Shown here: in pieces, positions 10,023 through 58,537 of the stretch
Position numbering within the stretch: position 1 is the first letter of the stretch
How the letters are laid out: each line of letters begins with the position of its first letter
Assembly: GCA_964473105.1 (NCBI GenBank)
Contig: CAYYNQ010000103.1
Span: 17,021-81,020, forward strand
Reading direction: 5' to 3'
Length of the DNA: 64,000 bases
Origin: an uncultured Candidatus Sumerlaeota bacterium
Lineage (GTDB): Bacteria; Sumerlaeota; Sumerlaeia; MVZB01
Translations under genes and position numbers: made by a program
Notes under the pieces: generated by a model
Told to the model about the DNA's origin: nothing
The model's input: only the letters and a program-made list of their open reading frames with translations
The model's database searches: none

Positions 10023-10814
10023 GTGTGGATGGGTTGTGATAGAAAGGTGCGTTGGCGCGAATATTCGGATCCGAGGACATGGAGCGACAGGGTGAACGCA
10101 CCTCGACCCAGAAAGAAGCAGGGAGCCCTCAAGGGGAGCACGTCCGTCATTGACGGGCAGGGTTCCAGCCCGCTTGCGAAGGATGGGATCCGCATCGATG
10201 ATCCTGAATGGCAGAATGATTTCTATCTGCGCCAGCGGCTAAAACGCGCACGGATTCCCCGTCGGTATGCGTCGAAGACTTTAGGGACATTCGATGGCCG
10301 TAGCAGCCCAATTCTCGGGAACTTGACCAAGGATGCGGAACGATACGCCAAGGGTTTCAACTTTGAGGTGGAGTATCCACGTGGCTTGCTGATGGAGGGA
10401 CCTGTCGGTTGTGGAAAGAGCCACATGGCCATCGCAATTCTGCGTGAGATCATCCGGAAAGGATACAGCGGGCTTTATTATAATTCACCCGATCTGCTGC
10501 GAGATATCCGGGCAACATTTTCAAAGGGAAGCCAGATCACCGAGGATGACCTTCTTGAGGAGGTCACGACGATCGATATGTTGGTGTTCGATGACATGGG
10601 GGCCGAGATGTGCACAAATTTTGTCCTCGACCGATTCTATTTGATTATCAATGAACGTTATACTGACTGTAAGCCAGTGATAATCACAACCAATCTCTCA
10701 CGTGAAGAACTGAAGAACCGGCTGGGTGAGCGTATTTTCAGCCGGATATTTGAGATGTGTACACCATTTGGTCCATTTCCGGAAAAGGACTGGCGGATTG
10801 ATCATATGTACTGA
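10023..10814 (+). CDS. DnaC/IstB-family AAA+ ATPase (helicase-loader-like), no IstA transposase next to it
   Basis: Walker A GPVGCGKSHMA, Walker B MLVFDDMGAE, and a DnaC-like tail (RATFSKGS...IITTNLSREEL...GERIFSRIFEMC). GTG/ATG start near 10023-10029. Confidence 0.75.
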   Translation: MWMGCDRKVRWREYSDPRTWSDRVNAPRPRKKQGALKGSTSVIDGQGSSPLAKDGIRIDDPEWQNDFYLRQRLKRARIPRRYASKTLGTFDGRSSPILGNLTKDAERYAKGFNFEVEYPRGLLMEGPVGCGKSHMAIAILREIIRKGYSGLYYNSPDLLRDIRATFSKGSQITEDDLLEEVTTIDMLVFDDMGAEMCTNFVLDRFYLIINERYTDCKPVIITTNLSREELKNRLGERIFSRIFEMCTPFGPFPEKDWRIDHMY

Positions 10815-41379: not shown

Positions 41380-43263
41380 ATGTTTATGCTGAAGAGGTTT
41401 CAAGTGATATTTAATTCTCCTTTCCACTCTGTGAGTTCAAGGCTGGTTTTCCCAGTCTTTTTTCTTGTCCTGTTTTTCTTCGACCCGACCTGCGTGCAAT
41501 CGGTTAAGGACATCAGTCAATTCACCAGTCATTTCAGAGATCCCGACCGGGGTCACGCACCATGGGGTTTTTATCCGGAGGACAGTATCGCGAGTGTGTC
41601 CACAACCGAAAGCCCGGGGTTTGTGGTCATCCGCAATAAGGGTGGAGGCACGGATATCAAGGGTATCTTGGCGGAACCGATCCGTATGGACGAATACCCT
41701 GTTCCCTGGGAATTCCACATGGGTTTCATGCAGGATAAGTTCCAGGCCGTTGGCAGTGAGGGACAGGTCAATTATGCCTTCGGGGTTAATGTAGCCGTCA
41801 CGTTCTCCGACCCTTCGACCTGGCCGGCGGACCGGACACAACGCCCCCCCAATACGCGTTCCGTCCAGCTTCTGCTGGTGCACATGGGTAATGTTGGTGA
41901 GAACTTTCGGGCCGGCCTGCCCCTGGCCAGGCTGAGTGGACTGAATTCATATGACAGTTCACCCGAGGTTTTTCTTGTTTACGGCCGGGGTGATCTTGAT
42001 CCTATCGCACAGGGTAACTGGAATTTTGGGTACACCTCTGTCGGGGCTGACCTGAATAATGCAGGCAGTGGCGAGGCCGGCGGAGCAGCCGACCCGATCA
42101 TCAAGTTTCGTGTTGGCATGAATTCTTCAAACCTGACCCTGGGAGTGGGTTTTGGACCTAATATCGGCTGGAAGAGCAGGGTTATCAACTTTGGTCGGTT
42201 TGGGAAGGCGACGGGTATATGGGAGATCGGGCCGATTATCTCGCTCGACAACTGGATGGCTGAAGAACTGGGGCCGGAACTGGGGCTCACCGAGCCCCCA
42301 AGGTGGCTCAAAAGCATCAAAAGCCGTTATTCAACATCGTGGGGGGAACATGACCCGGCAACCATCGACCCATTGTTGGAGCTGTTTAGAATCCAGCCGC
42401 CAGACCCGAAAGTGCCATGTTATCTTGACTACGCGATCTTTTACCACAACGGCCCAGGCTACATTGAGCAACTTGGTGAGGAGTTTAATGTCCCGGGATT
42501 CCTGGCCGGCGAGAAGTATTATATCGAGGGCAATGTCTTTACCGAGACCTTCTCGAACCCGGGTTTCCTGACGGCAACATCGTTTGGTAATCACGGTGGC
42601 TGGGCGATGTGCCCGATTTTTGGGGGAAGCAGCATCGACCTGACCGGTGAACGTAGCCCCCCCTTCGAGGTCGAGATCGCCGCGATAACACCCGACAATG
42701 ACAAACCCTGGAACCTGTGGTGGAACATTGGAATCTGGAATGAAAAGGGCGACAAGTATGCCGGTTGGCAGCCGTGTATCAAGAATATTCCCGGTGTCGG
42801 GCGCCGTTTCACGAATTCCTTTTCCATCGATCCGGATGCCTTTGAATACCCGACCGAGATCCAGAACAGCGCGATCAACCCGAGATTCGATCCACCCATC
42901 CCGGAACTGCTCGGCCACAAGCCCCTATACTGGTTGTTACAGGTGAAGGATGAGTACCATGTCCGGGTCGGGGTGAGGGGCGACTCGGATGACCCATGGA
43001 CGTTCTCGACCGAGTGCGACACGCGGGACATATTCGGCTCCGACGGCCCGATCAGCATCGTGAATAAAAATAGTAGCGGTCCGGTACATCACACGGGTTA
43101 CAAGGAGGATGACCCTTTCGGAAAAATCGGGAAGTTCGGTTACCCGGCGTTGGTCTCTTACCAACTGCAGCCGAAGGACGGGGTTGCGGGCGTGGGAAAC
43201 GCCCCCGGTTATCAGCAGATGTTGATTGATTATATCCGTTACCGTTATGAATGTTCCGAATGA
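41380..43263 (+). CDS. Secreted ~625 aa protein of unrecognised family (family A, copy 1)
   Basis: N-terminal signal/TM. Clear paralog of 52418..54193 (blocks DIKGIL.EPIR.D.YP.PW.FHMG, WEIGPIISLD.W, NIPGFLA..KYYIEG.VF.ET.SNPG, GGWA.CPI, PWNLWWN.G, WQPCI.NIPG, YPALVS.Q, IDY..YRY). No known domain recognised. Confidence 0.75.
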   Translation: MFMLKRFQVIFNSPFHSVSSRLVFPVFFLVLFFFDPTCVQSVKDISQFTSHFRDPDRGHAPWGFYPEDSIASVSTTESPGFVVIRNKGGGTDIKGILAEPIRMDEYPVPWEFHMGFMQDKFQAVGSEGQVNYAFGVNVAVTFSDPSTWPADRTQRPPNTRSVQLLLVHMGNVGENFRAGLPLARLSGLNSYDSSPEVFLVYGRGDLDPIAQGNWNFGYTSVGADLNNAGSGEAGGAADPIIKFRVGMNSSNLTLGVGFGPNIGWKSRVINFGRFGKATGIWEIGPIISLDNWMAEELGPELGLTEPPRWLKSIKSRYSTSWGEHDPATIDPLLELFRIQPPDPKVPCYLDYAIFYHNGPGYIEQLGEEFNVPGFLAGEKYYIEGNVFTETFSNPGFLTATSFGNHGGWAMCPIFGGSSIDLTGERSPPFEVEIAAITPDNDKPWNLWWNIGIWNEKGDKYAGWQPCIKNIPGVGRRFTNSFSIDPDAFEYPTEIQNSAINPRFDPPIPELLGHKPLYWLLQVKDEYHVRVGVRGDSDDPWTFSTECDTRDIFGSDGPISIVNKNSSGPVHHTGYKEDDPFGKIGKFGYPALVSYQLQPKDGVAGVGNAPGYQQMLIDYIRYRYECSE

Positions 43264-43388: not shown

Positions 43389-45308
43389 TCAGTATGAAAC
43401 CAGGGGAATGATTCTGTCAGGTATGAATTGTGTTACCTGGTGCATGGGTGCCTGATTGGACCGGTAGTGCGTGCGCTCATAGATCTGATAGTAATTTCCC
43501 GTTTCACGCGGCTTGACGTCGATCACCGTGCTGCCCTTGAAGGTCAGCCCGACCTTTTCACCATTGATTGTGTAATCGTCCTCCCAGATAGGGACCGGGA
43601 ACTCCAGGATGATCCTGTCCCCGGGCCGAATTTCCTGAAAGATCAGGCGGTTGCCGTAACCGGCCGGGTCGACTTCCCTGATTTTTACACGGCCGAACAG
43701 GCCTGGGCGTTCAATACGTGACCTTACCCGGTTCTTCTCGACCCATCCGGGGATACGAACGATCACGGTATGAGCTTGCTTGTTGATCAAAACGACCTTG
43801 CCCTCGTAGGGAAGATAACTGGTGACATCCATCCATGCCGAGGCGCGGTTGAGAAAGAGATTGACGGTGGCCATTCCCCGGTCAAACCGTGTGATGCCAT
43901 GCCATGCATAATAAAGTCCCTGTGCGCCATTGACGGCACAGCATCCTCCCAGATTGGCCAGGCAGACACGGGAATGACTGCTGTGTGAAAAACCGCCACG
44001 AAAATTTTTCAGCAGCTCGTCCTCGACTGTCCCGGGTTTTGTCCCGCTGACCCGGCGCATTTTTTCAAGGTCGGTGATCTGCTGCTCGACAAGGTGGTTT
44101 CGCACGGTGTAGTCGAGATCGTCCCAGTAGTCGCCCAAGCCGGCATCACTCATTCGCACGGCATTGACGGCAAAGTCACCGGTGGCGCAGGGTTCGGGAT
44201 AACGCGCGAGGTCAACCGGGCGGCCGTAGGCCTCGGGTTTTGACCATGCGGGTGAGAAACCGAGTCGCACGATACCGTTGCGCCGGGTGTGTTCGTAATA
44301 CTCGCGTGTGAATTCCTTGAGCCAGTCACTGTTGGTGGCGATCGCCATGTCGAGCATTGCAATCAGCCCCTGCGTGCCGTTGTGGAAATGTCCCATCCAG
44401 ATCCCATGTTCGTAACCGGGGTAGCGTTTCTCATCGCTGTTCTCGGCCCACATGCCAGGCTTGAGCGAGAAGCGAAGAATTTTCTTTGCGAGCTCAATCG
44501 ATTCCTCCTCGCCGGTCATTTTGTAATGAATGGCGAGGACACTCATCAGCCGATTGGCTTCAGCACGGGCAGCGCCTTCATAACCGAGTGCATCCATATG
44601 TGGCTCGACCTCAGGGATGTAATCTGGATTGCCCTGACCGTCCTGGACCGTCCACTTCCCCTGTTTGTCGATGCCGGCTTGCATGGGGAAGAATGCCCGA
44701 TCCTCGACGTGGATCGCGACGTTACGGATACCGCGGGCGAGATGATCGATCCAGTCATCCCATTTTGGATTGCCATCGCGGGCCTTGAAATTCAGCATGG
44801 CGAAGATGGTGGTGGCATTGGTCTGGGGGTAGGACGTGCCCTTGAGCTTGCTGGCAGTGACCGGGTAATAGAGCTGTCCGTCCTCATCAATAGCCTTAAG
44901 GAGGGTCTTCATCAGGTTGTATTCGATATCGAGGTTGTGATCGGTGCCGACGGCCTGTCGCAGCATGGGTAGTTGTCGTGCGTTCTTGGGGGAGATATCC
45001 CAGTTTGGGTAATAAATTTCGGGCTTTTTATCATACTGGATGCTTCCCACGGCGTAGGCATGGCTGGGGTCGAGGCTGTTGGTGAGGATGTTAACGGAAT
45101 ATTCCATCTGTCCGACGAGATCAAGCGTATCGGGGACAATGGCCTTGTGTCGTTCCCCAGTCGGATACATACTCTCGATGTTAAGAACTTCATCGATGTT
45201 AAGCTTGGAGGAGGCATTCGGGGAAAATGAAATATTGAAAGCCAGAAGTGCCGCAATGGTCATGGAAGAAATACGAAAAAGGAAACGATTCATGGTTAAA
45301 GTCCCCAC
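43389..45308 (-). CDS. Secreted DUF1680/GH127-like (beta-L-arabinofuranosidase-type) six-hairpin glycosidase
   Basis: Signal peptide and ~640 aa. E372-P-C374 and C456-C457 are spaced like the Zn/catalytic Glu-x-Cys ... Cys-Cys of GH127 (HypBA1 E338/C340/C417/C418). Confidence 0.5.
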   Translation of the reverse strand: MGTLTMNRFLFRISSMTIAALLAFNISFSPNASSKLNIDEVLNIESMYPTGERHKAIVPDTLDLVGQMEYSVNILTNSLDPSHAYAVGSIQYDKKPEIYYPNWDISPKNARQLPMLRQAVGTDHNLDIEYNLMKTLLKAIDEDGQLYYPVTASKLKGTSYPQTNATTIFAMLNFKARDGNPKWDDWIDHLARGIRNVAIHVEDRAFFPMQAGIDKQGKWTVQDGQGNPDYIPEVEPHMDALGYEGAARAEANRLMSVLAIHYKMTGEEESIELAKKILRFSLKPGMWAENSDEKRYPGYEHGIWMGHFHNGTQGLIAMLDMAIATNSDWLKEFTREYYEHTRRNGIVRLGFSPAWSKPEAYGRPVDLARYPEPCATGDFAVNAVRMSDAGLGDYWDDLDYTVRNHLVEQQITDLEKMRRVSGTKPGTVEDELLKNFRGGFSHSSHSRVCLANLGGCCAVNGAQGLYYAWHGITRFDRGMATVNLFLNRASAWMDVTSYLPYEGKVVLINKQAHTVIVRIPGWVEKNRVRSRIERPGLFGRVKIREVDPAGYGNRLIFQEIRPGDRIILEFPVPIWEDDYTINGEKVGLTFKGSTVIDVKPRETGNYYQIYERTHYRSNQAPMHQVTQFIPDRIIPLVSY

Positions 45309-47671: not shown

Positions 47672-48682
47672 ATGTCAGGAGTCAGAGCTGAAATGAACAT
47701 GGGATTTGTAGACCTGCATGTGAACGGTATTGCCGGAACTGATTTCACAAAGCCGGACCTGACTGGTGATGATGTTTCTCGGGTCGCTGCATATCTGTAT
47801 CGGCACGGTGTGGCGGGATTCTGCCCGACGGTCATAACAACGTCGATGAGTACATATAGGCGTTGCCTGCCGGTTCTGGCGGGCCATAAACATTCACCTG
47901 GCGAGGCGAAGGTCTTGGGCATTCATGTTGAGGGTCCGTTCCTAAGTCCGCAGGACGGCCCGCGTGGGATTCACCCGGCTGATTTGATGCGACAACCATC
48001 GATCAACTTGTTTGATCAATTGCGTTCCTGGGCCGATGATAAAATATTGATGCTGACACTTGCTCCCGAGTTGCCAGGCTCGGTTGAGTTGATAAGGCAT
48101 GTCCGGACACAAACCACGGCAAGGATTTCAATTGGTCACACGATGGCGCCATCCGATGCTATCAGGGCTGCTGTCGATGCCGGCGCGACTTTGGCAACCC
48201 ATCTGGGAAACGGTTTGGCGAGCATGATTCACCGGCATTATAATCCGCTCTGGCCACTACTAGACGACGATCGTCTTTCGGCAATGTTGATCACCGACGG
48301 ATTCCATCTCCCGGCCGATATGGTCAGGACCTGCCTGCGTGCGAAGGGGGCAAGACGTTCAATCGTAACGAGCGATGTTGTCCATATCTCGGGCTTGGAC
48401 CCGGGCGATCATATAATGCATGGGGTGGAAGTCGTACTTGAGGTGAATGGTCATTTGCATCGCAGGGGTGCGGATAATCAGTTGGCCGGGTCAGGATGCC
48501 ACATGTTGGATTGCATGAACCACCTTTCATCACTTGAGATTTTGAATGAGAAGGAATTGCGGGCCGTTGGTCGGACGAATGCACTAGATGTGCTGGGTTA
48601 TGATGGGGAAATGGAAGATGATCTGGTTGTGTATGAAGGCGGGAAATTCAAAGTCAGGAAGATCAGTGACGGATCTGCCTAG
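47672..48682 (+). CDS. nagA: N-acetylglucosamine-6-phosphate deacetylase-like amidohydrolase (short form)
   Basis: DLHVNGIAGTDF (E. coli NagA-type DxQ/HxNG), HVEGPFLSP, HLGNG, and a C-terminal beta-segment. 336 aa, with no long N-terminal beta-sandwich. Confidence 0.65.
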   Translation: MSGVRAEMNMGFVDLHVNGIAGTDFTKPDLTGDDVSRVAAYLYRHGVAGFCPTVITTSMSTYRRCLPVLAGHKHSPGEAKVLGIHVEGPFLSPQDGPRGIHPADLMRQPSINLFDQLRSWADDKILMLTLAPELPGSVELIRHVRTQTTARISIGHTMAPSDAIRAAVDAGATLATHLGNGLASMIHRHYNPLWPLLDDDRLSAMLITDGFHLPADMVRTCLRAKGARRSIVTSDVVHISGLDPGDHIMHGVEVVLEVNGHLHRRGADNQLAGSGCHMLDCMNHLSSLEILNEKELRAVGRTNALDVLGYDGEMEDDLVVYEGGKFKVRKISDGSA

Positions 48683-48868: not shown

Positions 48869-49711
48869 TCACCGCAGGAAGTTGATCTGGCCCGGGGGCC
48901 ATACTCGCATAAAGGCGCGGCCCTTGATGTGATGCCGTGGAACGCCACCCCAGTAGCGGCTGTCGAGGCTGCCGTGCATGTTGTCCCCAAAGACGTAGTA
49001 TTCGTCGTTGGGGACACGAATGGATCTCAGCCGGAGGCTGATATTATCGATGTCATCGTATTCAATCTCCGGTCGTTGGAAAAATCCCCGGTTATTGGAG
49101 TTGACATGGTCGACATATTGCTGGGTCCGGAAAAATCCGGGATTCACTATTTTTCGCCCGTTGACCTTCAGATGACCAGCAGAGTCAAAGGTCAACAAGT
49201 CACCCGGCGTGCCCGTGCATCGCTTGATATAGATTGGGGCCTGGGGCCTGTATAATCTTCCGGGCACTTTGAAGATCGTGATATCACCATGGCTGGGATT
49301 TTGGAACCAGTAGGCGAGCTTGTTGACGAGGATCCGGTCATGCTGGGATGTCAGAATTCCCTGCTGGTCCCAGCGGCTGAGTTGCATCGTGTCCGGATTG
49401 ATGGTCTTGTTATAGATGTAGCGTGAGGCGGATTTTATGAACACGAATGGAACCTGTTGTTGCTGGTCAAGAAAGATGATATCCCTACGGTCATCGCCGT
49501 TGACATCGACAAGTGCGACCATGCCTCCGATCAGGGTGGGGGTCATCGATGCGCTGGGGATTTTATAGATATCGACCAAGAACATCTTCATGAATACCAC
49601 GACAAGGAAGATCCGGACGAATTCGTTGAACAACTTCCGGATCTCCGCTGGACACCTCGTTGAGGGACCGTTTTTATTGATGATTTCACTTGAAGATTTT
49701 GTGCTGGCCAT
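48869..49711 (-). CDS. lepB: Signal peptidase I
   Basis: Box B IPSASMTPTL, box D/E GDNMHGSLDSRYWG, and an N-terminal TM. Confidence 0.9.
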   Translation of the reverse strand: MASTKSSSEIINKNGPSTRCPAEIRKLFNEFVRIFLVVVFMKMFLVDIYKIPSASMTPTLIGGMVALVDVNGDDRRDIIFLDQQQQVPFVFIKSASRYIYNKTINPDTMQLSRWDQQGILTSQHDRILVNKLAYWFQNPSHGDITIFKVPGRLYRPQAPIYIKRCTGTPGDLLTFDSAGHLKVNGRKIVNPGFFRTQQYVDHVNSNNRGFFQRPEIEYDDIDNISLRLRSIRVPNDEYYVFGDNMHGSLDSRYWGGVPRHHIKGRAFMRVWPPGQINFLR

Positions 49712-49991: not shown

Positions 49992-51695
49992 TTATCCCTG
50001 TGAAATCCAGAAAAACAACCCGATGATTGCAATTACGACAAGCCAACCGGTAGCAAAGCCGATTGCGGAAACTGCAGAGGGAATGGGAATTTCGAGATTT
50101 TGCAACGGTATTAGTTTGCGTACCGGGAGTGCCTGCGTATTTTCCGGCAGGGTGCAGGGTTTTGCAACCTTTTCATCAGCAAGAACCGGGGTGCGGGTCA
50201 GGGCATAAAACAGGTCGAGTTTTTCCCGTGCGACCGGCCGGGTGGCTAGGCTTGCAAGGATTCCGCCTAAGGTTCCGGCGAGCAGGTAAAAAACCATCTG
50301 CCATGGCAGGTAAAGTGATGCAGCATCGCCCTCACCTCTGACCCAAGGTAGATCAAAAATCTCGGGGATGCCTGACATCCATCCGACGAAGAATTCACGT
50401 TCAGTCAGGTACCAGCATCCGAATCCGGCCAGCGTGGCTATCCAGGCGCCTGCCACGGTCGTTCGTCTCCAGAATAGGCCCAGCCAGAACGCGATCCCCA
50501 TCATTGCGGGGATTCGCCAGAAGACCTCAAGCATCTTGATGACGTTTTCCATCGAGTATGCAAAGTAAAGGCCTCCCGCGACAATCAGCAGGGCGATGAA
50601 CCGACCGATGCGGAGGTAATGCTGTTCAGGACGGTTAGGTACCAGTCTGCTGTAGATATTCCGGGTGAACAGGCCGGATGAGGCAATCATGAACGAGTCA
50701 CAGGAACTCATTACCGATGCCAGCAGCGCCGCGAGGAATACTCCCAGCAGTCCCGGCATGATTTTGGGCAGGAACTCCCGTGCTGCGTGGCCATAAACCT
50801 CGTCCGGGTTGACATCAGAACCGGTGAAGTAAGCGACTGCGGCCAATCCGGTCAGGCACCAGGCGATCGTGCAGATTCGCTTGAGCAGGTTACCTCCCAT
50901 CATGCCGCTCCGGCCATCCAATTCGGTACGTCCGGCCGCGCAGTTGCCGAGGATGTGCGGCTGGGTGACGATTCCCACCAGCGCATTGAACGCGATGATG
51001 ATGATATAAAAGAAGCCGATCTCGCCGGGTGCGACCAGTGAGAACATGTTGTCCGCATTATTGATGGTGTTGCGGATTCCGTCGATCCCGCCGACGGCCG
51101 AGAGGATGAACGGCAGCAGCAGGAATGAAAAGATGATTGTCAGGACCCCTTGGATGAAGTCGGTGACGATTGCTGCGCTGAGCCCCCCCGCGATTCCATA
51201 GATCACGAACATGGCGGTCATGACTCCGATCGCGAGGTTTTGGGATATCATCCCGCCGGTGCTGGCTGTAATAACCGCCCCCGACCCCTTGAGCATAGTG
51301 CCGATGTTGAACATCAGGCTGAACATGCCGACGACGGCGAACAGGCCGGCCACGCTTTTGTCATACCGTGCTTCAAAGATGTCGGCTGTGGTAATGGCGC
51401 GAAACCGGCGCATCACGGGGGCGATCAGCCAATAGAAGGGCGTGGCAAAGAGATAGAGCCACTGATACCAGATGCCCGACAAGCCGCTGGTGAATGTCTT
51501 GGAGGCGACACCGACGGCCTGGTCGGAATGAGTTCCCGACCCGAAGGCATGCATCATCATCATCGATTTCCCAAAGCGGCGCGGCATGAAGAAGTCGCCG
51601 GTCGTACGGATCCGGCGGGCCATCCAGATTCCCAGTCCGGTGATTCCGACCAGGTAGACGGTCAGAACGACCTTGTCCGCGGTGGCCAAACCCAT
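49992..51695 (-). CDS. Sodium:solute symporter family transporter
   Basis: 13-14 TM, SSF-type N-terminus (MGLATADKVVLTVYLVGITGLGIWMARR...GDFF) and core. Confidence 0.85.
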   Translation of the reverse strand: MGLATADKVVLTVYLVGITGLGIWMARRIRTTGDFFMPRRFGKSMMMMHAFGSGTHSDQAVGVASKTFTSGLSGIWYQWLYLFATPFYWLIAPVMRRFRAITTADIFEARYDKSVAGLFAVVGMFSLMFNIGTMLKGSGAVITASTGGMISQNLAIGVMTAMFVIYGIAGGLSAAIVTDFIQGVLTIIFSFLLLPFILSAVGGIDGIRNTINNADNMFSLVAPGEIGFFYIIIIAFNALVGIVTQPHILGNCAAGRTELDGRSGMMGGNLLKRICTIAWCLTGLAAVAYFTGSDVNPDEVYGHAAREFLPKIMPGLLGVFLAALLASVMSSCDSFMIASSGLFTRNIYSRLVPNRPEQHYLRIGRFIALLIVAGGLYFAYSMENVIKMLEVFWRIPAMMGIAFWLGLFWRRTTVAGAWIATLAGFGCWYLTEREFFVGWMSGIPEIFDLPWVRGEGDAASLYLPWQMVFYLLAGTLGGILASLATRPVAREKLDLFYALTRTPVLADEKVAKPCTLPENTQALPVRKLIPLQNLEIPIPSAVSAIGFATGWLVVIAIIGLFFWISQG

Positions 51696-51890
51696 AGCTC
51701 AAATCTCCCTTGAAGGCTCAATCATGGATATCGAACGACTGTGAATCAACCGGATTCCCTCTCGAGAGCACAGTAGCAGCAGGGGTGAGATCATGGTCAA
51801 CCCGATAGCCCTGTGGGATAATCCTCAAAGAAAACACCTGTTTCATTTCCGGCGATGCAGTTGGATATCCGTGCACCGTTGATGGGTGAA

Positions 51891-52163
51891 TCATCGCAGT
51901 ATTCGCTTCCTAAGGAGGACCAGATTGATTTCAATATGCGGGTTAACGTTGCTCTTCAGGGACAGGGGAGCGGGTAGGAACATATCCGGTGGGATATCGA
52001 TTCTGTCTCCGCCTTCGACGGCACCAAAATCGAGGATATTATAAAAATCCTTTATTCCAGATTCCGGATGGAAGGGCGTGCTGAGGATCAGCAGGAACGT
52101 CATGGATAGGGTGGCAAGGTATTTAATTCTGATATGCATTAGATTACTGTCATGAGGAGCCAT
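51891..52163 (-). CDS. Hypothetical small secreted protein
   Basis: 90 aa ORF with an internal Met followed by a signal-peptide-like segment (MHIRIKYLATLSMTFLLILSTPF). Confidence 0.3.
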   Translation of the reverse strand: MAPHDSNLMHIRIKYLATLSMTFLLILSTPFHPESGIKDFYNILDFGAVEGGDRIDIPPDMFLPAPLSLKSNVNPHIEINLVLLRKRILR

Positions 52164-52417: not shown

Positions 52418-54193
52418 TCACCTGGAATCGCCGTAGCGATAATAGAGGTAATCGATCATAAACCGCTGGTAATAGGGCCAGTTGCCCGCACCCCATCCCT
52501 TCTGTCCGACATGGGAACCCTGGAAAGACACCAGTGCAGGATAGGAAAACGCCGCAATCTTGCCGAACATGTCCTTCGAATCGAAGGGTTCGGAAAAAAC
52601 CCACGGGTCCTTCTTGTCGGCCTTGAACCCCACGCGAAGGTTGTACTGGTTCGGGATCTGGATCAGCATATAGAGCGGCCGGGCGGTCATGATTGCCTGA
52701 GTCAGCTCGGGTCCGAACTCGGGCGTGATCCGGATGTTCGGATTGACAAAGCTACCACGTTTGGGATCGAAAGCACCCGAATTACTGTAGGCGATGGCTT
52801 TCCCTGGAATATTTGTGATGCAGGGCTGCCAAGGGTGGTAGGTTCCTTCGGTATCGTAGAGTCCAACATTCCACCAAAGGTTCCAGGGTCGTTCATTGCC
52901 GGGTGGGATAAAACAGAGCTCGATCTCGAACGGGGGTTTGCGATTCCCGATCACGTCCATTTTACCCGGCCCGATCGGGCAGAGTGCCCAGCCACCGTTC
53001 ATGCCGTAGGGTGTCAGGGTCATGTATCCGGGATTGGAGTAGGTTTCACCGAACACATCGCCCTCGATGTAGTATTTCATGTCTGCGAGGAAACCGGGGA
53101 TGTTGAAGTCATCGGAAAGATGCTCGACGTTTTGCGGCCCGGATCCATAGAAGTGCATGTAGTCCACGTAATACTCAAAGCGTTTGTCAGGCACCTGGAC
53201 CTGGAAGGTGTTCTTGAGCCGGTTCAGGATCTCGATCTGTTCAGGTGAGATATCCTTCATGAGCTTGTGGTGTTCACGGAAACTGTCGATCCACATCGGG
53301 GCTTCGTTGACACTCAGTTTTTTTGCAAGCACGTCCGGGATCCAGCGATCGAGGGATATGATCGGCCCGATTTCCCAGACACCGGTGATCGGTCGCGGTG
53401 TGCTAAACTGTCTAAATTGCCATCCCGAGTCGTGGCCTGCCCCGACACCGAGTTCGATGGACTGGTTGCTGGAAAGTCCGATGGTAAAGCGGATGGAATA
53501 CTCGGCGGGACCGCCGAACCGTTTCCAGGTTCCGGAGATTGAATTGGCAAACCCGACCCATGAGTAGTTGAAATCCCAGCGGCCGTTGACCGTCTCGGGG
53601 GCGAGATCACCCCGGCCGTAGATCATGTAGACCTCAGGTGAAAAGTCACGCTGATTCATGTCGGTATGCTTGACGGCCGGCAGGCCCTGGCGGTAGTTCT
53701 CCCCCTGATTTCCCAGGTGGACGACAAACAACTGCAGTTCCTCCGTATCGGGTGGCCGTTTGGAGCGGTCGGTCGGCCAAGTGGAGGGGTCGGAATAGGT
53801 GACGGCCAGGTTTACCCCGAAGGCCCAGTTGATCTGCTCATTGACGAGTCCCTTGACCCCGAGGTAGTTCTGGAGGATTCCCATGTGAAATTTCCAGGGC
53901 AGGGGGTAATCATCGATACGGATCGGTTCCCTGAGGATTCCCTTGATGTCCTGTCCGTTTCCGTTTTCACGGATCGTGAGGTAGCCGGGATTTTCGGTGG
54001 CGGTCATCTCGCGGATGTTGGAATCGGGGGTGAACATCCAGGGGTTGAGGTTGTCACCGTCAATAAAATGCTGATTGAGTTTGCGGATATCCCGGTCGTC
54101 CCGGGCATTTGTTTCGGCCTGCGACAGGATAAGGAGGAACAGGACTACCAAACTCAGGAGTTCGGTTCTTGAATGAAACCAGGGATTATACAT
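52418..54193 (-). CDS. Secreted protein of unrecognised family (family A, copy 2)
   Basis: Paralog of 41380..43263 (roughly half identical by eye, collinear). Signal peptide after the Met at 54193; the ORF is open to 54292. Confidence 0.75.
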   Translation of the reverse strand: MYNPWFHSRTELLSLVVLFLLILSQAETNARDDRDIRKLNQHFIDGDNLNPWMFTPDSNIREMTATENPGYLTIRENGNGQDIKGILREPIRIDDYPLPWKFHMGILQNYLGVKGLVNEQINWAFGVNLAVTYSDPSTWPTDRSKRPPDTEELQLFVVHLGNQGENYRQGLPAVKHTDMNQRDFSPEVYMIYGRGDLAPETVNGRWDFNYSWVGFANSISGTWKRFGGPAEYSIRFTIGLSSNQSIELGVGAGHDSGWQFRQFSTPRPITGVWEIGPIISLDRWIPDVLAKKLSVNEAPMWIDSFREHHKLMKDISPEQIEILNRLKNTFQVQVPDKRFEYYVDYMHFYGSGPQNVEHLSDDFNIPGFLADMKYYIEGDVFGETYSNPGYMTLTPYGMNGGWALCPIGPGKMDVIGNRKPPFEIELCFIPPGNERPWNLWWNVGLYDTEGTYHPWQPCITNIPGKAIAYSNSGAFDPKRGSFVNPNIRITPEFGPELTQAIMTARPLYMLIQIPNQYNLRVGFKADKKDPWVFSEPFDSKDMFGKIAAFSYPALVSFQGSHVGQKGWGAGNWPYYQRFMIDYLYYRYGDSR

Positions 54194-54456
54194 TGGTCGG
54201 GCCTTTCTGGCCTTGATCCGGAAAGACGACTTTTTTTCTAGATGCATCAATGAATTGGGAACGGGGGTACCCCCCCTTATTTTAAAGATCATCTTTACAG
54301 TGTCATGACAAGCAAAATTCTGCGTGAAACGAACCGAAGTATCAACCCGGAAATCATGTTCGTCGAAAAATCATCCGTGGTTAAAATCATTGCGGACTGA
54401 CTGGAAGTACATCAATACATAATCCCATGCATGCCAGGCAGGAAAGCCCGGCCTAG

Positions 54457-54747
54457 ATTTTCGGGGTTGCGCTGATCTCGGCGGTCGGGTCTTTCATTTT
54501 CGGGTTCGAGTATGGTGATCATATCCGGTGTCATCTTGTTCCTGGAGGAGGGATGCGGGCTGTCCGGCCAGACGGTGGCCCACGCCTTTGCGACGACCCG
54601 GGAGAACTTCATCAAGCTCCACGACATTTCGCTGGCAGTTTCTTGATATTCACCGGGATCTCCATGCTGGCCTTCCTTTTCAATTTCAAGATGGTTTCAG
54701 AAACCAAGAAAAAAACACTTGGTAAAATCTCAGCCTTTTGGACTTAA
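54457..54747 (+). pseudogene. Possible 3' remnant of an MFS sugar-porter gene
   Basis: The reading frame ends ...GSFLIFTGISMLAFLFNFKMVSETKKKTLGKISAFWT. This resembles sugar-porter TM12 plus the PETKGK(T/S)LEEI tail. The upstream part is not transporter-like in any frame. Confidence 0.25.
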
Positions 54748-56520
54748 GAGTGCAGGAGGACGGGCACCCGAACCTGAATCATGATTGTTCAGGTCCTGAT
54801 ATGTGTTGATGTCATTCTCATAACGCAAAGCGAGGTCATCCATGTCACCCTTGAGAAAATAGATGCGTTGGTGGGTCAGGCGCGAACCGCCGGCTGGAAT
54901 CGAAGAATCCGGATTACAGTGCAGGCAGGAATATTCACGGTTATTGAACAACCGGTTTGGCGGGCCCGTCAACACCACTGGGCAGACCAGCCATTCCCCG
55001 TCTCGTGAACGGGTTGAGATAAAAGGGCCATTGACAACAGTGGGGTCTCTCCCTGAGGGATCGCTTGAAGGTAGCATGTGGTTTTGGCAGTAGATGCGGT
55101 CGTTGACGTGATGCCAGATTTCCTCCATCGACTTCAAGCCACGATCGGTCGAGATCAAGGTGCGTACACCGTCGTGGTCGCGGAAGTTGGGCGCACCTGC
55201 GAGACTCAGGCACATTTCCTGGGATGTCGAGACCGTGTTCGGTCCGTTGTTTCGGCAGTCGAAGATGATATCGATGCTGTCAAGCCCGGTCTCGACCCGG
55301 AGACGGGCGTGCATTTCCCAATCCTCCTTTTGCGTCGTATATTCGACATGCGTGAAATCAGGGCTGAAATTGAACGTCTGGACTGGGGAATTCCACTGCC
55401 AGTAACACTCAAGCATGACGCCGAATCGGTCATCGGGAAAATATGGTACACGAACCTCAACCATCCACAGTGTCATCTCTCCGCGTATTTCTTCGGGGGT
55501 GAAATCGTCGGGCCATCGTCTTGGATCGCCGGGAGGCGCATCGCGGATTGATTCAACCGAGCGGGTGGGCAGAATACGGATATTTTCCTTGAGATATATT
55601 CCCGGATCGGGAGGCTGCGGCCGATGAGATTCCCGTGATAAGGGCCACGGGGCGCGACGTTGATATGGATCCGTATCGGTTTGGGCCATTGACTTGTTCG
55701 GAAAGTCATCCGGCAGGTCCATCGCGCAACGGAATCCGGAGTAGGGCTGGTTGAATAATTTCGAGGCGAGCATCGACCCGTTGCCACCGGGATGGCCGAT
55801 GTGCAGTGCACTGACAAACTGCCAGGGCCGGGAAAAAATGAAACCTCCGCCCTTGGTGATGATACAGTATTCAAAACCTTCTGCGCGTGCCCCGTCCACG
55901 TATTCAGGCACATTTCCGGCCATGTCCATCACGCCATAGATACTGCGGTCTAGACCGAACGAACCCACGGGTGAGGTTTCAGGATTCATGGGCCGGCCTT
56001 GCAAGTCATCCATCCTGCAGGCGTGCGGGTGCCAGGTGTTGCCCCACGGCCACAAACGTCCATCCGTTCCTCGTGCGGCCTTCTCCCATTCGGCCTCCGT
56101 GGGCAGGCGTTTTCCGGCCCAGTTTGCATAGGCGCCGGCGTCTGCATGATCAATTCCGACGACGGGATGATCGGCCCGTTCTTCGGGGTATTCCGCGATG
56201 ATCCAGTTCAGGGGTAGACGATACCCGGTCGCCTCAGTGAATTCGCGGTACTGTTGGTTGGTGACCTCGAACCGGTCGATCAGGAACGCAGGCAGTTCGA
56301 TTTCTCGAGAGGGGATGTTTGCACACAGGTCCGGGTTGATCTGGTAGGTCTCAGAGAGTTTCTGTATTTGATCACTTGTCAGTCCGGACAGGAATATGCC
56401 CGCAGGAACGAGAACCATGTCTTTGTGTAATGGTGTGTTATGAAATGTACCAGCCGTGAATCCATTCATGGAAATGGCAATAAGGCAGAACACCATGGAT
56501 CGGATGAATATGTTTTCCAT
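54730..56520 (-). CDS. Secreted FGE/SUMF1-fold domain protein lacking the catalytic Cys pair, with a C-terminal ~330 aa domain of unknown function (family B, copy 1)
   Basis: Signal peptide. FGE-sulfatase domain (RLPTEAEWEKAARGTDGRLWPWGN...GFRCAMD) with no Cys at the FGE active-site positions. The C-terminal domain is shared with 56840..58537 (NFRDHDG.RT, LFNN.EYSC.H.NP, QRIYF..GD...LA.RY). Confidence 0.8.
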   Translation of the reverse strand: MENIFIRSMVFCLIAISMNGFTAGTFHNTPLHKDMVLVPAGIFLSGLTSDQIQKLSETYQINPDLCANIPSREIELPAFLIDRFEVTNQQYREFTEATGYRLPLNWIIAEYPEERADHPVVGIDHADAGAYANWAGKRLPTEAEWEKAARGTDGRLWPWGNTWHPHACRMDDLQGRPMNPETSPVGSFGLDRSIYGVMDMAGNVPEYVDGARAEGFEYCIITKGGGFIFSRPWQFVSALHIGHPGGNGSMLASKLFNQPYSGFRCAMDLPDDFPNKSMAQTDTDPYQRRAPWPLSRESHRPQPPDPGIYLKENIRILPTRSVESIRDAPPGDPRRWPDDFTPEEIRGEMTLWMVEVRVPYFPDDRFGVMLECYWQWNSPVQTFNFSPDFTHVEYTTQKEDWEMHARLRVETGLDSIDIIFDCRNNGPNTVSTSQEMCLSLAGAPNFRDHDGVRTLISTDRGLKSMEEIWHHVNDRIYCQNHMLPSSDPSGRDPTVVNGPFISTRSRDGEWLVCPVVLTGPPNRLFNNREYSCLHCNPDSSIPAGGSRLTHQRIYFLKGDMDDLALRYENDINTYQDLNNHDSGSGARPPALLSPKG

Positions 56521-56839
56521 TCACGCCTGTTACACGAGAATACTGAAATAATCAACATTATCCTGTATCCAAATAAATCGGGATACGGCCTTGTTCCCTT
56601 GCTGTGAAGGGATTGCGGGTTGATGTCCAGAATTCTGCGGGCATTCCGGCATGTCATATATCATGTCGGTTCGTTTGCCAGAATCCTGATATCAATTTTG
56701 GATAGGGTATATGATGAAGTGACGTCAGCCCTGTTCTTGGAAGTTCCAATCACAGTCACAAAGCAATGAAAATATGTGCAAATCTGTTCCTTATGGGTTA
56801 CAAGGATCATCAAGCTCAAGAAGGTATCGGAGGCGAAGC
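56521..56839. promoter_or_regulatory. Shared divergent promoter region between the two family-B genes
   Basis: Non-coding stretch between the divergent paralogs. Contains a perfect 8-bp palindrome TGACGTCA at 56720..56727 and a GGAGG RBS before 56840. Confidence 0.4.
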
Positions 56840-58537
56840 ATGCAGCATGCGAAGACAGGGTTACTATTCATTCTTGTTCTGGCTTCATTCATGCCCTTTC
56901 ATGTGATGTCGAGGCCACCCTTGCCTGCGACCGATGGAATGGTTCTGGTCCCGGCGGGAAAATATACGATGGGCACCTCGAAAAAACAGCAGCTGAAATT
57001 TTCGGAACAGTATCGCATTCATCCCGATATCTTTGAGATTCGGCCGCGCCGCGAAGTAATTGTTGCCGCCTTCTATATTGACGAGCATGAAGTCACGATA
57101 GGGGAATATCGGGATTTTATGGAGGCAACCGGTCATCGTGTGCCGATCATCTGGCTGGAACACGGGTTGCCCCGGGGAATGGATGAGCACGCCGTTACCG
57201 GGGTGGATTACGAGGATGCGGAGACCTATGCGCAATGGGCCGGAAAACGCCTGCCCACTGATGTTGAATGGGAGAAGGCTGCACGAGGTGCCGACGGCAG
57301 AATCTTTCCATGGGGCAATCACTGGGAACCCGGGGCATGTAATGCTGATAGCGGGGGAACGGATGCGATGATCACACATCCGGCGGTGGTCGGTTCGCAT
57401 CCGCGTGATCGAAGTGTCTATGGTGTTTATGATATGGCCGGGAACGTGATGGAATGGGTGGGGTATGCAACCCCCCCGGGTCTGGTACGTGGTGGTAGTT
57501 TTGCGCAGGCCGCACCTTGGCAGTTCAGTTGTTCTGCACGCGTGATCCACCCCACCAACCACGGAGGACTGGGATACATCGGATTCCGATGTGCAATGGA
57601 CGCCGGTCGGGTCACCCGGACTACCTCGCGCCTGCCGACCAGACCCGGGATCAAAAAAACTCCCGATCCGGGTTCAGTCTCAAACAAGGTCCGCAGACCC
57701 GATGCAACGTTGATCGGTTCAGAGTCGATCCGGATCTTTCCTGTATACGAACTGGACCCGGACAGGAAAAGTTACCAGAATGCAATGTTCCATTATATTG
57801 GAGATCTGCGTGAGGAGAAACTGACTACAGAGGAAATGGTACCCTGGCGATTCGAGGCACAGATCCCCTACATGCCAGATGACCGTTTCGCATTTTTCTT
57901 TGAGGGACAGTATGAGCGTCCAATGGAGGGGTTATGGTTCAGCGATGATTTTACGGAGGCGAAAGTCCGGACTGATTCCACAGGCATTGAGTCCCGGGTC
58001 TCCATCAGGTGCGGCAGGGATTTCATCGATATCGAGCTCAGTGCGATCAATCATACCGACAGCGATTACCACACGACCATGGAGATTTGCTTTCAACCCT
58101 TGTGGGCGCCCAATTTTCGGGACCACGATGGTTTGCGCACATACATGCTGACCGATGAGGGCTTCAGGAGTACAAGCCAGATCGAGCACCGGGTGATGGA
58201 GCGGTTTTGGTGCCAACAGTACCTTGTCGAGAAGCCTCTAGGCGGGGGCTATGAGGGTACGCCCGGATTAAATGGGTCGATGGTTGCAGTCGTATCACGC
58301 GATCACCGGTGGGCGATCTCGCCGGCAGCCATTTCCAGTCGGCCTTACAGACTATTCAACAACTGGGAATATTCATGTATCCATAGCAATCCGATTTCGG
58401 GTGTTAAAGGTGGAGAGAGCAGACAGTCGAGACAGAGGATATATTTCCATCATGGTGATTTGAAGTCGCTGGCGGAACGTTATGCCGGTGATGCGGAGTT
58501 TGACGTGAAATATCTCCAACATGCCGAACACCCATGA
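56840..58537 (+). CDS. Secreted FGE/SUMF1-fold domain protein with the same unknown C-terminal domain (family B, copy 2)
   Basis: RLPTDVEWEKAARGADGRIFPWGN...GFRCAMD and the shared C-terminal domain. Start at MQHAKT after the GGAGG; the ORF is open from 56774. Confidence 0.8.
   Translation: MQHAKTGLLFILVLASFMPFHVMSRPPLPATDGMVLVPAGKYTMGTSKKQQLKFSEQYRIHPDIFEIRPRREVIVAAFYIDEHEVTIGEYRDFMEATGHRVPIIWLEHGLPRGMDEHAVTGVDYEDAETYAQWAGKRLPTDVEWEKAARGADGRIFPWGNHWEPGACNADSGGTDAMITHPAVVGSHPRDRSVYGVYDMAGNVMEWVGYATPPGLVRGGSFAQAAPWQFSCSARVIHPTNHGGLGYIGFRCAMDAGRVTRTTSRLPTRPGIKKTPDPGSVSNKVRRPDATLIGSESIRIFPVYELDPDRKSYQNAMFHYIGDLREEKLTTEEMVPWRFEAQIPYMPDDRFAFFFEGQYERPMEGLWFSDDFTEAKVRTDSTGIESRVSIRCGRDFIDIELSAINHTDSDYHTTMEICFQPLWAPNFRDHDGLRTYMLTDEGFRSTSQIEHRVMERFWCQQYLVEKPLGGGYEGTPGLNGSMVAVVSRDHRWAISPAAISSRPYRLFNNWEYSCIHSNPISGVKGGESRQSRQRIYFHHGDLKSLAERYAGDAEFDVKYLQHAEHP

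Follow-up and report, generated by a model that had tools for sequence, protein, structure and literature searches.

A copy-2 paralog of an uncharacterised two-jelly-roll protein family in Sumerlaeota, and its possible role in glycan breakdown

We analysed a 64,000-nucleotide stretch of DNA (the window) from an uncultured Candidatus Sumerlaeota bacterium, which contains two genes, copy 1 and copy 2, of a family here called Family A. Copy 2 is located on the minus strand at 52418..54193 and encodes 591 amino acids followed by a stop codon. The public record gives it as a 624-aa protein, and the frame is open over 624 codons (52418..54292, minus strand); the residue numbers used below are those of this long ORF, in which the start that we assign, at 54193, is Met34. 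The 33 codons of the 5' extension (54194..54292, minus strand) are probably untranslated. They score 0.019 in codon usage, where real 33-codon windows score 0.198 ± 0.112; this is low, yet not off-frame-like. Copy 2 itself scores 0.243 per codon, against 0.20 ± 0.07 in real genes. The copy-2 orthologs P0001 and P0002 start at a Met equivalent to Met34, and no counterpart of the extension was found at the N-termini of the family members. In addition, the DNA upstream of copy 2 can be aligned with that of a 94% relative (L067) only by allowing gaps whose lengths are not divisible by three, and a sigma-70-like match (54306..54279) overlaps the upstream ATG of the long ORF. On these grounds, the 624-aa ORF was rejected as the true protein in favour of a start at Met34.

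Copy 2 is an intact gene under purifying selection. There are no stops or frameshifts within its 591 codons, and its dN/dS is 0.147 and 0.093 relative to its 94% and 82% orthologs, respectively. Orthologs were used because the comparison between the two copies, which the preliminary description of this DNA had proposed, is uninformative owing to saturated dS (pS 0.73). That description had also named inactivating mutations or a lack of expression as the sign of a decaying duplicate. A decaying, non-functional copy 2 would fit with the pseudogene state of both sugar-related genes that flank it and with its departure from 16 of the 176 highly conserved family positions, where the median is 8. 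However, the main charge-changing or aromatic deviations are common to orthologs down to 63% identity: those at E134, Y156, R270 and G491 occur in all eight clade members, and the remaining ones at least in P0001 and P0002. The deviations are therefore old and maintained and, together with the open frame, the dN/dS values and the gene-like codon usage, already contradict decay, which we consider highly improbable.

Read along the minus strand, copy 2 is followed by a small ORF (52163..51891), a Na+/solute symporter (SSF) gene and the gene for signal peptidase I. The small ORF lies 3' of copy 2, the reverse of the order described before. Nor is it the small secreted protein that it had been taken for, as this is ruled out by its homology to P0271, a 63-nt deletion and a +1 frameshift; together with its frameshifted continuation, it is a stump, the 5' remnant of a GH28-like beta-helix glycosidase gene that has decayed (51824..52163, minus strand). 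P0271 matches the N-termini of exo-polygalacturonases of about 450 aa (5olp, 2uve and 3jur; E=5e-12 to 1e-9) and also PF12708, and comparison with a closer relative (L072) revealed the 63-nt deletion and the +1 frameshift near 51911. On the 5' side of copy 2, and divergent from it, lies an MFS sugar porter pseudogene (54427..54747, plus strand), recognised by comparison with L067, in which the intact porter N-terminus matches MFS_1 (7e-12) and Sugar_tr (1e-8). In the window, a Trp codon has become a stop, the frame is shifted near 54505, and a large internal segment, roughly 1 kb as estimated from the missing TM2-TM11, is deleted, so that only the C-terminal tail remains. Ancestrally, copy 2 was flanked by genes for a GH28-like glycosidase and an MFS sugar porter. 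In this genome, both sugar-related neighbours are pseudogenes.

The SSF gene (49992..51695, minus strand) is intact, lies 722 nt downstream of copy 2 and matches Pfam SSF (E=2e-37), with a superfamily-level match only in NCBIfam. It and the signal peptidase I gene (48869..49711, minus strand; E=3e-34) had been reported near copy 2, and we confirm this and their shared strand. The SSF adjacency is kept in L072, where the gene comes after the GH28 stump, and no SSF gene is present in the approximately 0.9 kb of contig after the 82% ortholog (L004). The proximity of signal peptidase I is without evident functional meaning.

Copy 1 (41380..43263, plus strand) encodes 627 aa and is located directly downstream of two genes, one for an AP_endonuc_2 TIM barrel and one for a GarL/HpaI-like aldolase. 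BLASTP aligns the two copies with 43% identity over 628 columns (E=5e-169), far beyond chance. The five conserved blocks quoted in the preliminary description are present exactly in copy 2 (53879-53950, 53342-53377, 52856-52888, 52802-52831 and 52520-52543) and, with 1-4 substitutions each and in the same order, in copy 1 (41653-41724, 42220-42255, 42706-42738, 42766-42795 and 43141-43164), so that the reported collinearity holds. The proposal of an old duplication is likewise borne out. In neighbour-joining bootstraps, copy 2 grouped with P0001-P0007 in 100 of 100 replicates and copy 1 with its ortholog P0070 (66% identity) also in 100 of 100, and the two copies were sisters in none of 100; moreover, both clades co-occur on other contigs (L070 and L002). 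Judged from these sequence comparisons, the two genes are out-paralogs of old origin.

The copy-2 protein begins with a predicted Sec-type signal peptide, MYNPWFHSRTELLSLVVLFLLILSQAETNA (54104..54193, minus strand), modelled as a helix (residues 40-59) with low pLDDT. Such a leader is family-wide: in 92 of the 103 members compared, a hydrophobic stretch (median 33 aa) precedes a conserved DIRKLSQHF motif, and few show a twin-Arg-like or lipobox-like pattern. Given the intact ORF, the purifying selection and the signal peptide predicted throughout the family, the protein is predicted with confidence to be exported via the Sec pathway, leaving a mature protein of about 560 aa. The AlphaFold (AF2) model (pLDDT 87, pTM 0.84) consists, besides the signal peptide, of two ConA-like jelly rolls joined by a helical linker. 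The N-terminal beta-sandwich domain (residues 64-316; 53345..54103, minus strand) is the most conserved part. The linker (residues 317-365; 53198..53344, minus strand) comprises DSSP helices 317-325, 333-345 and 350-361, and the C-terminal ConA-like jelly-roll domain (residues 366-624; 52421..53197, minus strand) contains a conserved FE(I)E strand (E456, E458). Comparison of the two domain profiles with hhalign gave E=8.9e-5 which, together with the model, indicates that the two jelly rolls derive from an ancient internal duplication.

In Foldseek searches, the full-length model matched L-type lectins (VIP36 and legume lectins) and GH16 glucanases (prob 1.0, TMt 0.45-0.54, about 0.5), and also PL7. 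The N-domain alone gave no better than borderline matches (GH16, PL14, legume lectins and eqolisin; best E=0.01, TM <= 0.35). Because the N-domain lacks them, the lectin/GH16 matches were assigned to the C-domain by elimination. At the fold level, membership of the ConA-like lectin/glucanase superfamily is therefore predicted for the C-domain only, being borderline for the N-domain, which as modelled is without a close structural neighbour.

The likeness to GH16 enzymes (lichenases, laminarinases, agarases and porphyranases) comprises the ConA-like beta-jelly-roll (1byh, 1u0a, 8xph and 5nbo; prob 1.0, TMt 0.39-0.54), the best, although weak, N-domain matches (GH16 AgaC and PorB), and export in a glycan-degradation context. 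However, these enzymes share 8-13% identity with copy 2 and have one domain instead of two tandem jelly rolls with a helical linker. The strict catalytic ExDx(x)E strand was found in none of 111 family members, a loose motif occurs in 14 of 111, copy 2 not among them, and the Pfam Glyco_hydro_16 HMM did not match either copy at E<=1. L-type lectins (VIP36/ERGIC-53 and legume lectins) provide the best single-domain matches (2duo and 2duq; E about 1e-5, TMt about 0.5), but the family has no sequence similarity or Pfam match to them, is bacterial and tandem, and is far more strongly conserved. The PL7/PL14 beta-jelly-roll lyases share the fold class (5zu5, 5xnr, 7w12 and 5gmt); conserved Arg, Gln, Tyr and His are available in the family, and its context includes uronate/acid-sugar genes (the GH28 stump and the GarL-like aldolase). 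These structural matches are weak, though, and in part two-domain alignments with rmsd above 20 A, and the PL7 motifs R[STN]E[LV]R, Q[IV]H and YFKAG[VI]YNQ (also sought as YFKAGxYxQ) were each absent from all 111 family members, with no Pfam match. Tandem laminin-G/LNS proteins and tandem-repeat galectins also have two tandem jelly rolls and gave the top Foldseek E-values (5mc9, 6cw1 and 3vkl), but they are eukaryotic and show TM <= 0.2, rmsd of about 20 A and no sequence relationship.

Family A is an uncharacterised two-jelly-roll family, all members of which are labelled hypothetical. Copy 2 shows full-length collinear homology to it, with the motifs DIKG..PWEFH, WEIGPIISLD, PWNLWW, W.P..NIPG and YP.LVS.Q, and has 273 relatives (the best of them 94% identical, with profile bit scores as high as 959). 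These were found only in MAGs, almost exclusively of uncultured Planctomycetota and relatives: mostly Planctomycetota, and also Sumerlaeia. Among 49 sequences, 54 columns are invariant, with long invariant blocks and five invariant charged residues in the N-domain (D115, E198, E220, R227 and D315). The stand-alone architecture is constant and fusions are almost absent; in L032, a family gene seems fused to 2-Hacid_dh, but this artefact probably arose when the ORF was extended. Multiple copies or tandem arrays are frequent, with three copies each in L002, L022, L024 and L070 and two in L006, L025, L041 and L068, and one Sumerlaeia MAG has at least 11 family loci. Neither copy matched a Pfam family at E<=1, and searches of Pfam, NCBIfam and PDB sequences with single sequences and with whole-protein and N-domain profiles found no characterised family. 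No described equivalent was found in the literature.

Genes for glycan degradation and sugar uptake surround the family genes across loci. GH127/146-like partners are over-represented at distances of up to 3 kb (7 near versus 1 far, p=0.006), and other neighbours encode SASA esterase, sulfatase, BNR_2, HpcH/GarL-like aldolase, sugar transporters and the sugar oxidation proteins GSDH, PQQ and SGL. The neighbourhoods are heterogeneous: no dominant operon partner was found across the loci, none occurring in more than about 15% of them. Many of these neighbour families are abundant in Planctomycetota genomes anyway.

The N-domain residues E134, Y156 and R270 are near-invariant elsewhere in the family (86-91% conserved) and largely kept in the copy-1 clade, and they are replaced in every member of the copy-2 clade. 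In copy 2, the substitutions are K134 (53891-53893), W156 (53825-53827), T270 (53483-53485) and Q292 (53417-53419), all on the minus strand, with R292 being only partly replaced across the lineage. This pattern suggests an altered specificity, and copy 2 would most likely recognise another substrate than copy 1. The idea that each copy has its own role is plausible on this basis. Against this, Y156W taken together with F166Y could reflect repacking of the core rather than a change at a ligand site.

Our preferred reading, to which we assign a probability of about 0.4, is that copy 2 is an exported glycan-cleaving enzyme of an undescribed family, an old out-paralog with shifted specificity. Its site of action would be extracytoplasmic and its substrates complex glycans, probably of an anionic or pectin-like kind; D115, E198, E220, R227 and D315 would form a candidate active centre in the conserved N-domain, the lectin/GH16-like C-domain would hold the substrate, and sugar transporters encoded nearby would import the products. 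This enzymatic role is favoured by the signal peptide, the predicted fold, the enzyme-like conservation, the constant stand-alone architecture, the paralog arrays, the glycan context and the clade-specific substitutions, and disfavoured by the absence of GH16/PL7 motifs and of any characterised sequence match, by the heterogeneous neighbourhoods, and by the pseudogene state of both sugar-related genes beside copy 2. More tentatively still, Family A may found a new family of carbohydrate-active enzymes, hydrolases or lyases, in Planctomycetota and Sumerlaeota, with its catalytic centre in the strongly diverged N-domain, working on anionic or pectin-like glycans alongside GH127/146-like and GH28-like enzymes, and with paralog clades that differ in specificity.

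The missing jelly-roll catalytic motifs would also be expected of a non-catalytic exported glycan-binding protein, such as a tandem lectin or an adhesin by which polysaccharides are captured or presented at the cell surface for other enzymes or transporters. The best structural matches (VIP36, legume lectins, laminin-G/neurexin tandem LNS and tandem galectin-8) and the many conserved Trp, Tyr and Arg residues, typical of sugar-binding sites, agree with such a protein. However, lectins and CBMs are not usually conserved to the extent seen in the long invariant blocks and the five invariant charged N-domain residues; attachment to a catalytic domain is exceptional in the family, and its N-domain closely resembles no lectin. 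We regard a binding protein as somewhat less likely than an enzyme. An exported protein with a non-carbohydrate role, such as an eqolisin-like peptidase or a structural or adhesion protein of the cell envelope, is improbable. The ConA-like fold is functionally promiscuous and the weak N-domain matches include eqolisin glutamic peptidases (2ifr and 1s2b), but these are at E>0.02 and TM<0.3, and carbohydrate genes dominate the genomic context.

DUF1080 (PF06439) proteins, 3-keto-glycoside lyases/hydratases, are single domains of about 200-250 aa, whereas copy 2 has about 590 aa and two domains. They are GH16-like, periplasmic and work with "sugar phosphate isomerase" lyases and Gfo/Idh/MocA enzymes (preprint 10.1101/2024.03.25.586180). 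A functional analogue of them, which would be a periplasmic lyase/hydratase for the 3-keto sugars that Gfo/Idh/MocA enzymes produce, beside xylose-isomerase-like (AP_endonuc_2) lyases, is suggested by three anecdotal loci only: copy 1 lies 27 nt downstream of an AP_endonuc_2 gene; in L068, GFO_IDH_MocA, AP_endonuc_2 and other genes precede two family genes, all on a single strand; and in L002, a copy-2-clade gene and AP_endonuc_2 are about 2 kb apart. Systematic clustering was not found: AP_endonuc_2 is one of 79 likely operon partners, namely the window's own, and GFO is outside the top families. Both gene families are very abundant in these phyla, and chance adjacency is therefore likely. 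As copy 2 itself has no such neighbour and the PF06439 HMM matched neither copy at E<=1, a role in the oxidative 3-keto-glycoside pathway seems unlikely.

Much of the degradation of complex polysaccharides in the sea and in soils is due to Planctomycetota and their relatives, and a large share of the proteins that these bacteria export is without annotation. Because of its strong conservation, its paralog arrays, its glycan-catabolism context and the absence of a Pfam, NCBIfam, PDB or literature record, this two-jelly-roll family of about 270 members is a concrete candidate for an activity, catalytic or binding, that is still missing from the known breakdown of acidic or pectin-like glycans. 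At the locus itself, three public gene calls are corrected: the start of copy 2 had been placed too far upstream, and two stretches are remnants of pseudogenes, of which one had been annotated as a gene.

The conserved gene designated copy 2 lies in an open reading frame of 624 codons (52418..54292, minus strand), whose Met34 corresponds to the start at 54193 chosen in the preliminary description. A six-frame motif scan detected the five blocks quoted in that description exactly in copy 2 (53879-53950, 53342-53377, 52856-52888, 52802-52831 and 52520-52543), and near-identical forms of all five, in the same order, in the copy 1 ORF (41380..43263, plus strand). BLASTP aligned the two proteins over 628 columns with 43% identity (E=5e-169). 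The ordered blocks and this similarity, far beyond chance, confirm that the two copies are collinear and have conserved blocks in common.

The public record holds the 624-aa version of copy 2, and this call is probably over-extended. Only a short leader precedes the conserved motif DIRKLSQHF in the aligned homologs (49/49). A hydrophobic Sec-type leader (median 33 aa) is present in 92 of the 103 scorable family members, in which twin-arginine-like and lipobox-like patterns are rare. When begun at Met34, copy 2 has a leader of exactly this Sec-type kind, MYNPWFHSRTELLSLVVLFLLILSQAETNA. The 33 codons before Met34 score 0.019 per codon, compared with 0.198 +/- 0.112 for real 33-codon windows, which is low, yet above off-frame sequence. 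No counterpart of these codons was found in the orthologs, and an alignment of their DNA with that of the 94% relative, at locus L067 on another contig, requires gaps of lengths not divisible by three. In addition, a sigma-70-like match (54306..54279) overlaps the upstream ATG of the 624-codon ORF.

The copy 2 gene is intact and evolves under purifying selection. The preliminary description had raised the case of a decaying duplicate with inactivating mutations, which we consider highly improbable: the frame contains no stop and no frameshift, codon usage scores 0.243, which lies in the usual range for real genes here (0.20 +/- 0.07), and dN/dS (Nei-Gojobori) is 0.147 for the comparison with the 94% ortholog (L067) and 0.093 for that with the 82% ortholog (L004). 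Also arguing against decay, copy 2 has its main changes in common with the other members of its clade. The pairwise dN/dS between the two copies, proposed earlier as a check, is not interpretable because synonymous sites are saturated (pS 0.73).

In a neighbor-joining tree of 111 full-length family members, copy 2 groups with the homologs P0001-P0007 (63-94% identity), and copy 1 falls in a separate clade with P0070 (66%) and P0069. Of 100 bootstrap replicates, all recovered the copy-2 clade, all recovered copy 1 with P0070, and none recovered the two copies as sisters. Both clades also occur on other contigs, since L070 encodes P0005, P0078 and P0085, and L002 encodes P0007 and two more members. 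Therefore, the duplication is older than the split of these lineages, as had been supposed, and the paralogy is old and accompanied by clade-specific substitutions.

With respect to the 176 positions conserved at >=85%, copy 2 shows 16 departures and copy 1 shows 23 (family median, 8). All eight members of the copy-2 clade lack E134 (K/Q/R instead), Y156 (W), R270 (T/N/M/H) and G491 (C), and R292Q and D548N are also found in the closest members of this clade (residue numbers of the 624-codon ORF). E, Y and R at positions 134, 156 and 270 are largely kept in the copy-1 clade and elsewhere in the family. E134, R270 and R292 are found at alternating positions of adjacent predicted strands. That they were lost together suggests a common site or a network of salt bridges; Y156W with F166Y may instead reflect core repacking. 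The clade-wide substitutions support specialisation at the level of the clade, not decay, and to that extent they make plausible the earlier proposal that each copy has its own role.

An AlphaFold2 model based on a 49-sequence alignment (mean pLDDT 87, pTM 0.84) consists of a disordered or helical leader, a beta-rich N-domain (about 85-312), three helices (317-361) and a second beta-rich domain, the C-domain (about 374-620). Foldseek searches of the PDB with the full model returned concanavalin-A-like jelly rolls, all at 8-13% identity. These comprised L-type lectins, with VIP36 at E about 1e-5 and TMt about 0.5, legume lectins, glucanases of family GH16 (a planctomycete laminarinase among them), alginate lyases of family PL7, and tandem laminin-G/neurexin and galectin-8 proteins. 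When the N-domain was modelled by itself (pLDDT 83, pTM 0.85), the PDB yielded nothing below E=1e-3, so that, by elimination, the confident lectin/GH16 matches belong to the C-domain. The structures nearest to the N-domain model were GH16 AgaC and PorB, PL14, a legume lectin and eqolisin (TM <= 0.35), and as modelled this domain would be a strongly diverged sandwich with no close structural neighbour. Profile-profile alignment of the N-domain with the C-domain was significant in local mode (E=8.9e-5), pairing LSQHF...NPGYLT...PWEFHLG with LSDDF...NPGYLT...PFEIELAF. Therefore, the protein is an ancient internal duplication, from which the two-jelly-roll architecture of copy 2 arose. None of the 111 family members contains E-[ILV]-D-x(-x)-E, the motif of GH16, or any of the three signatures of PL7. 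The family has 54 invariant columns, among them five charged residues of the N-domain (D115, E198, E220, R227 and D315) and D377 and R553 of the C-domain; conserved Trp, Tyr and Arg are numerous.

Neither copy matched a Pfam or NCBIfam model, the single NCBIfam match (TscA, 12 bits) being noise, and no PDB sequence was matched by the protein, the whole-family profile or the N-domain profile. We found 273 relatives in 5.8 billion proteins, every one labelled "hypothetical". A profile run against 1.84 billion cluster representatives yielded just 225, and no account of the family came up in searches of the literature. Unannotated exported families are common in Planctomycetota. The 59 family loci among 185,579 species-representative genomes are all in MAGs, mostly of Planctomycetota, with a few "Terriglobia" bins, one "Chitinophaga" bin and one Candidatus Sumerlaeia MAG. 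The latter, CB27_Tmax.35, contains at least 11 loci (including L026, L041, L046, L050-L054, L059 and L060), which is a strong lineage-specific expansion. Tandem or clustered arrangements of family genes are frequent, with tandem triplets in L002, L022, L024 and L070 and two genes each in L006, L025, L041 and L068. Domain fusions are rare, the sole clear one being P0038 (L012 1524..4391), which has a C-terminal NHL/SGL-type beta-propeller. The fold class is known; the family itself has no entry anywhere and represents a new variant, at the family level, in a known superfamily.

On the minus strand, copy 2 is followed by a small ORF (52163..51891), an SSF (Na+/solute symporter) transporter gene (51695..49992) and a signal peptidase I gene (49711..48869). 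The last two were correctly placed near copy 2 in the preliminary description, but the order of copy 2 and the small ORF was reversed, the latter being located 3' of copy 2. This 90-aa ORF, which the public record lists as a gene, has gene-like codon usage (0.191) and three relatives. The relative P0271 (136 aa) aligns to ~450-aa GH28-type exo-polygalacturonases over their N-terminal ~70 residues (5olp, E=5e-12; 2uve; 3jur) and matches PF12708 as well. Compared with L072, the window lacks 63 nt and its frame shifts by +1 near 51911, and in both just ~140 codons are left before the SSF gene. Therefore, 51891..52163 is the stump of a decayed GH28-like gene, whose remaining 5' part (signal peptide and first beta-helix turns) spans 51824..52163 on the minus strand, and its earlier designation as a small secreted protein is ruled out.

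In the interval from copy 2 to the FGE-sulfatase-domain gene upstream of it lies an MFS sugar porter pseudogene (54427..54747, plus strand), divergent from copy 2. At this position L067 has an intact MFS/Sugar_tr N-terminus (E=7e-12 and 1e-8). In the window, a Trp codon has become a stop, the frame shifts near 54505, and a large stretch inside the gene (roughly 1 kb, judged by the absence of TM2-TM11) is deleted; what is left is the TM1 region and a C-terminal tail that matches a Sugar_tr C-terminus in L002 (E=1.6e-4). Thus, a sugar porter and a pectin-type glycosidase once flanked copy 2; both sugar-related flanks have decayed, and copy 2 and the SSF gene are intact. Co-transcription of these two is doubtful because the 722-nt gap between them is filled with pseudogene debris. 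The SSF gene is absent from the ~0.9 kb of contig following the 82% ortholog in L004, and the FGE-sulfatase-domain gene adjoining that ortholog is a 75% ortholog of 56774..58537. In the window, 54730..56520 (minus) and 56774..58537 (plus) form a divergent pair encoding two paralogs, both of which combine an FGE-sulfatase (SUMF1-like) domain at the N-terminus with ~300 aa at the C-terminus for which no family match was found.

A survey of 57 non-redundant family loci revealed no universal partner gene. DUF1501, which is very abundant in these genomes, neighbours family genes in 9 loci, SASA acetylesterase in 7, GSDH in 5 and SGL lactonase in about 4-5. Sulfatase, PQQ dehydrogenases, 2-hydroxyacid dehydrogenase and HpcH aldolase also recur, and BNR_2 is among the same-strand partners. 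An unannotated protein of ~640 aa is present in 7 loci. Its representatives include window ORF 43389..45308 (minus; 639 aa), which is convergent with copy 1 and has no Pfam or NCBIfam match; a 72% ortholog of this ORF immediately follows the three family genes of L070. PDB matches (6ex6, E=1.2e-4; HypBA1, E=7e-3) show this partner to be distantly related to the six-hairpin glycosidases of GH127/GH146, and it is enriched at distances of up to 3 kb from family genes (7 near vs 1 far; 2.0 vs 0.18 per 100 kb; p=0.006). Upstream of copy 1 are genes for a GarL/HpaI-like aldolase and an AP_endonuc_2 TIM-barrel protein (gap 27 nt). The gene for P0070, the copy 1 ortholog, ends a same-strand string of GFO_IDH_MocA, AP_endonuc_2, 2-Hacid_dh, Sugar_tr, two Metallophos and then two family genes. 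The genomic context of the family is carbohydrate-related, and we give little credence to a non-carbohydrate role.

Given its Sec-type leader, copy 2 is predicted to be exported, and it would act extracytoplasmically on complex, probably anionic or pectin-like, glycans. We tentatively favour a catalytic role (probability about 0.4), in which the invariant-rich N-domain would be the active centre and the lectin-like C-domain a binding module, because conservation is enzyme-like, the stand-alone architecture is constant and paralogs form arrays. A non-catalytic role, as a lectin or binding protein, is somewhat less probable. In the oxidative 3-keto-glycoside pathway, a GH16-like DUF1080 protein is the lyase/hydratase (preprint 10.1101/2024.03.25.586180), and the neighbourhoods of copy 1 and P0070, with AP_endonuc_2 and GFO_IDH_MocA, recall this pathway. 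However, AP_endonuc_2 is just 1 of 79 likely operon partners, and a DUF1080-like role is therefore kept as a minor, rather improbable rival.

Uroporphyrinogen decarboxylase-like (URO-D) genes are located beside sugar ABC transporter genes, near copy-2-clade members, in L002 (6830..7921) and L070 (11357..12460). Elsewhere in the window, a NagA-like (N-acetylglucosamine-6-phosphate deacetylase) ORF (47672..48682, plus) scores 165 bits against an NCBIfam cut-off of 226, with no Pfam match at E<=0.01, and is thus a diverged amidohydrolase. The ORF at 10023..10814 (plus) has an IstB_IS21/DnaC-like ATPase domain (E=1e-15) and may encode either an IS21 helper or a loader of the DnaC type.
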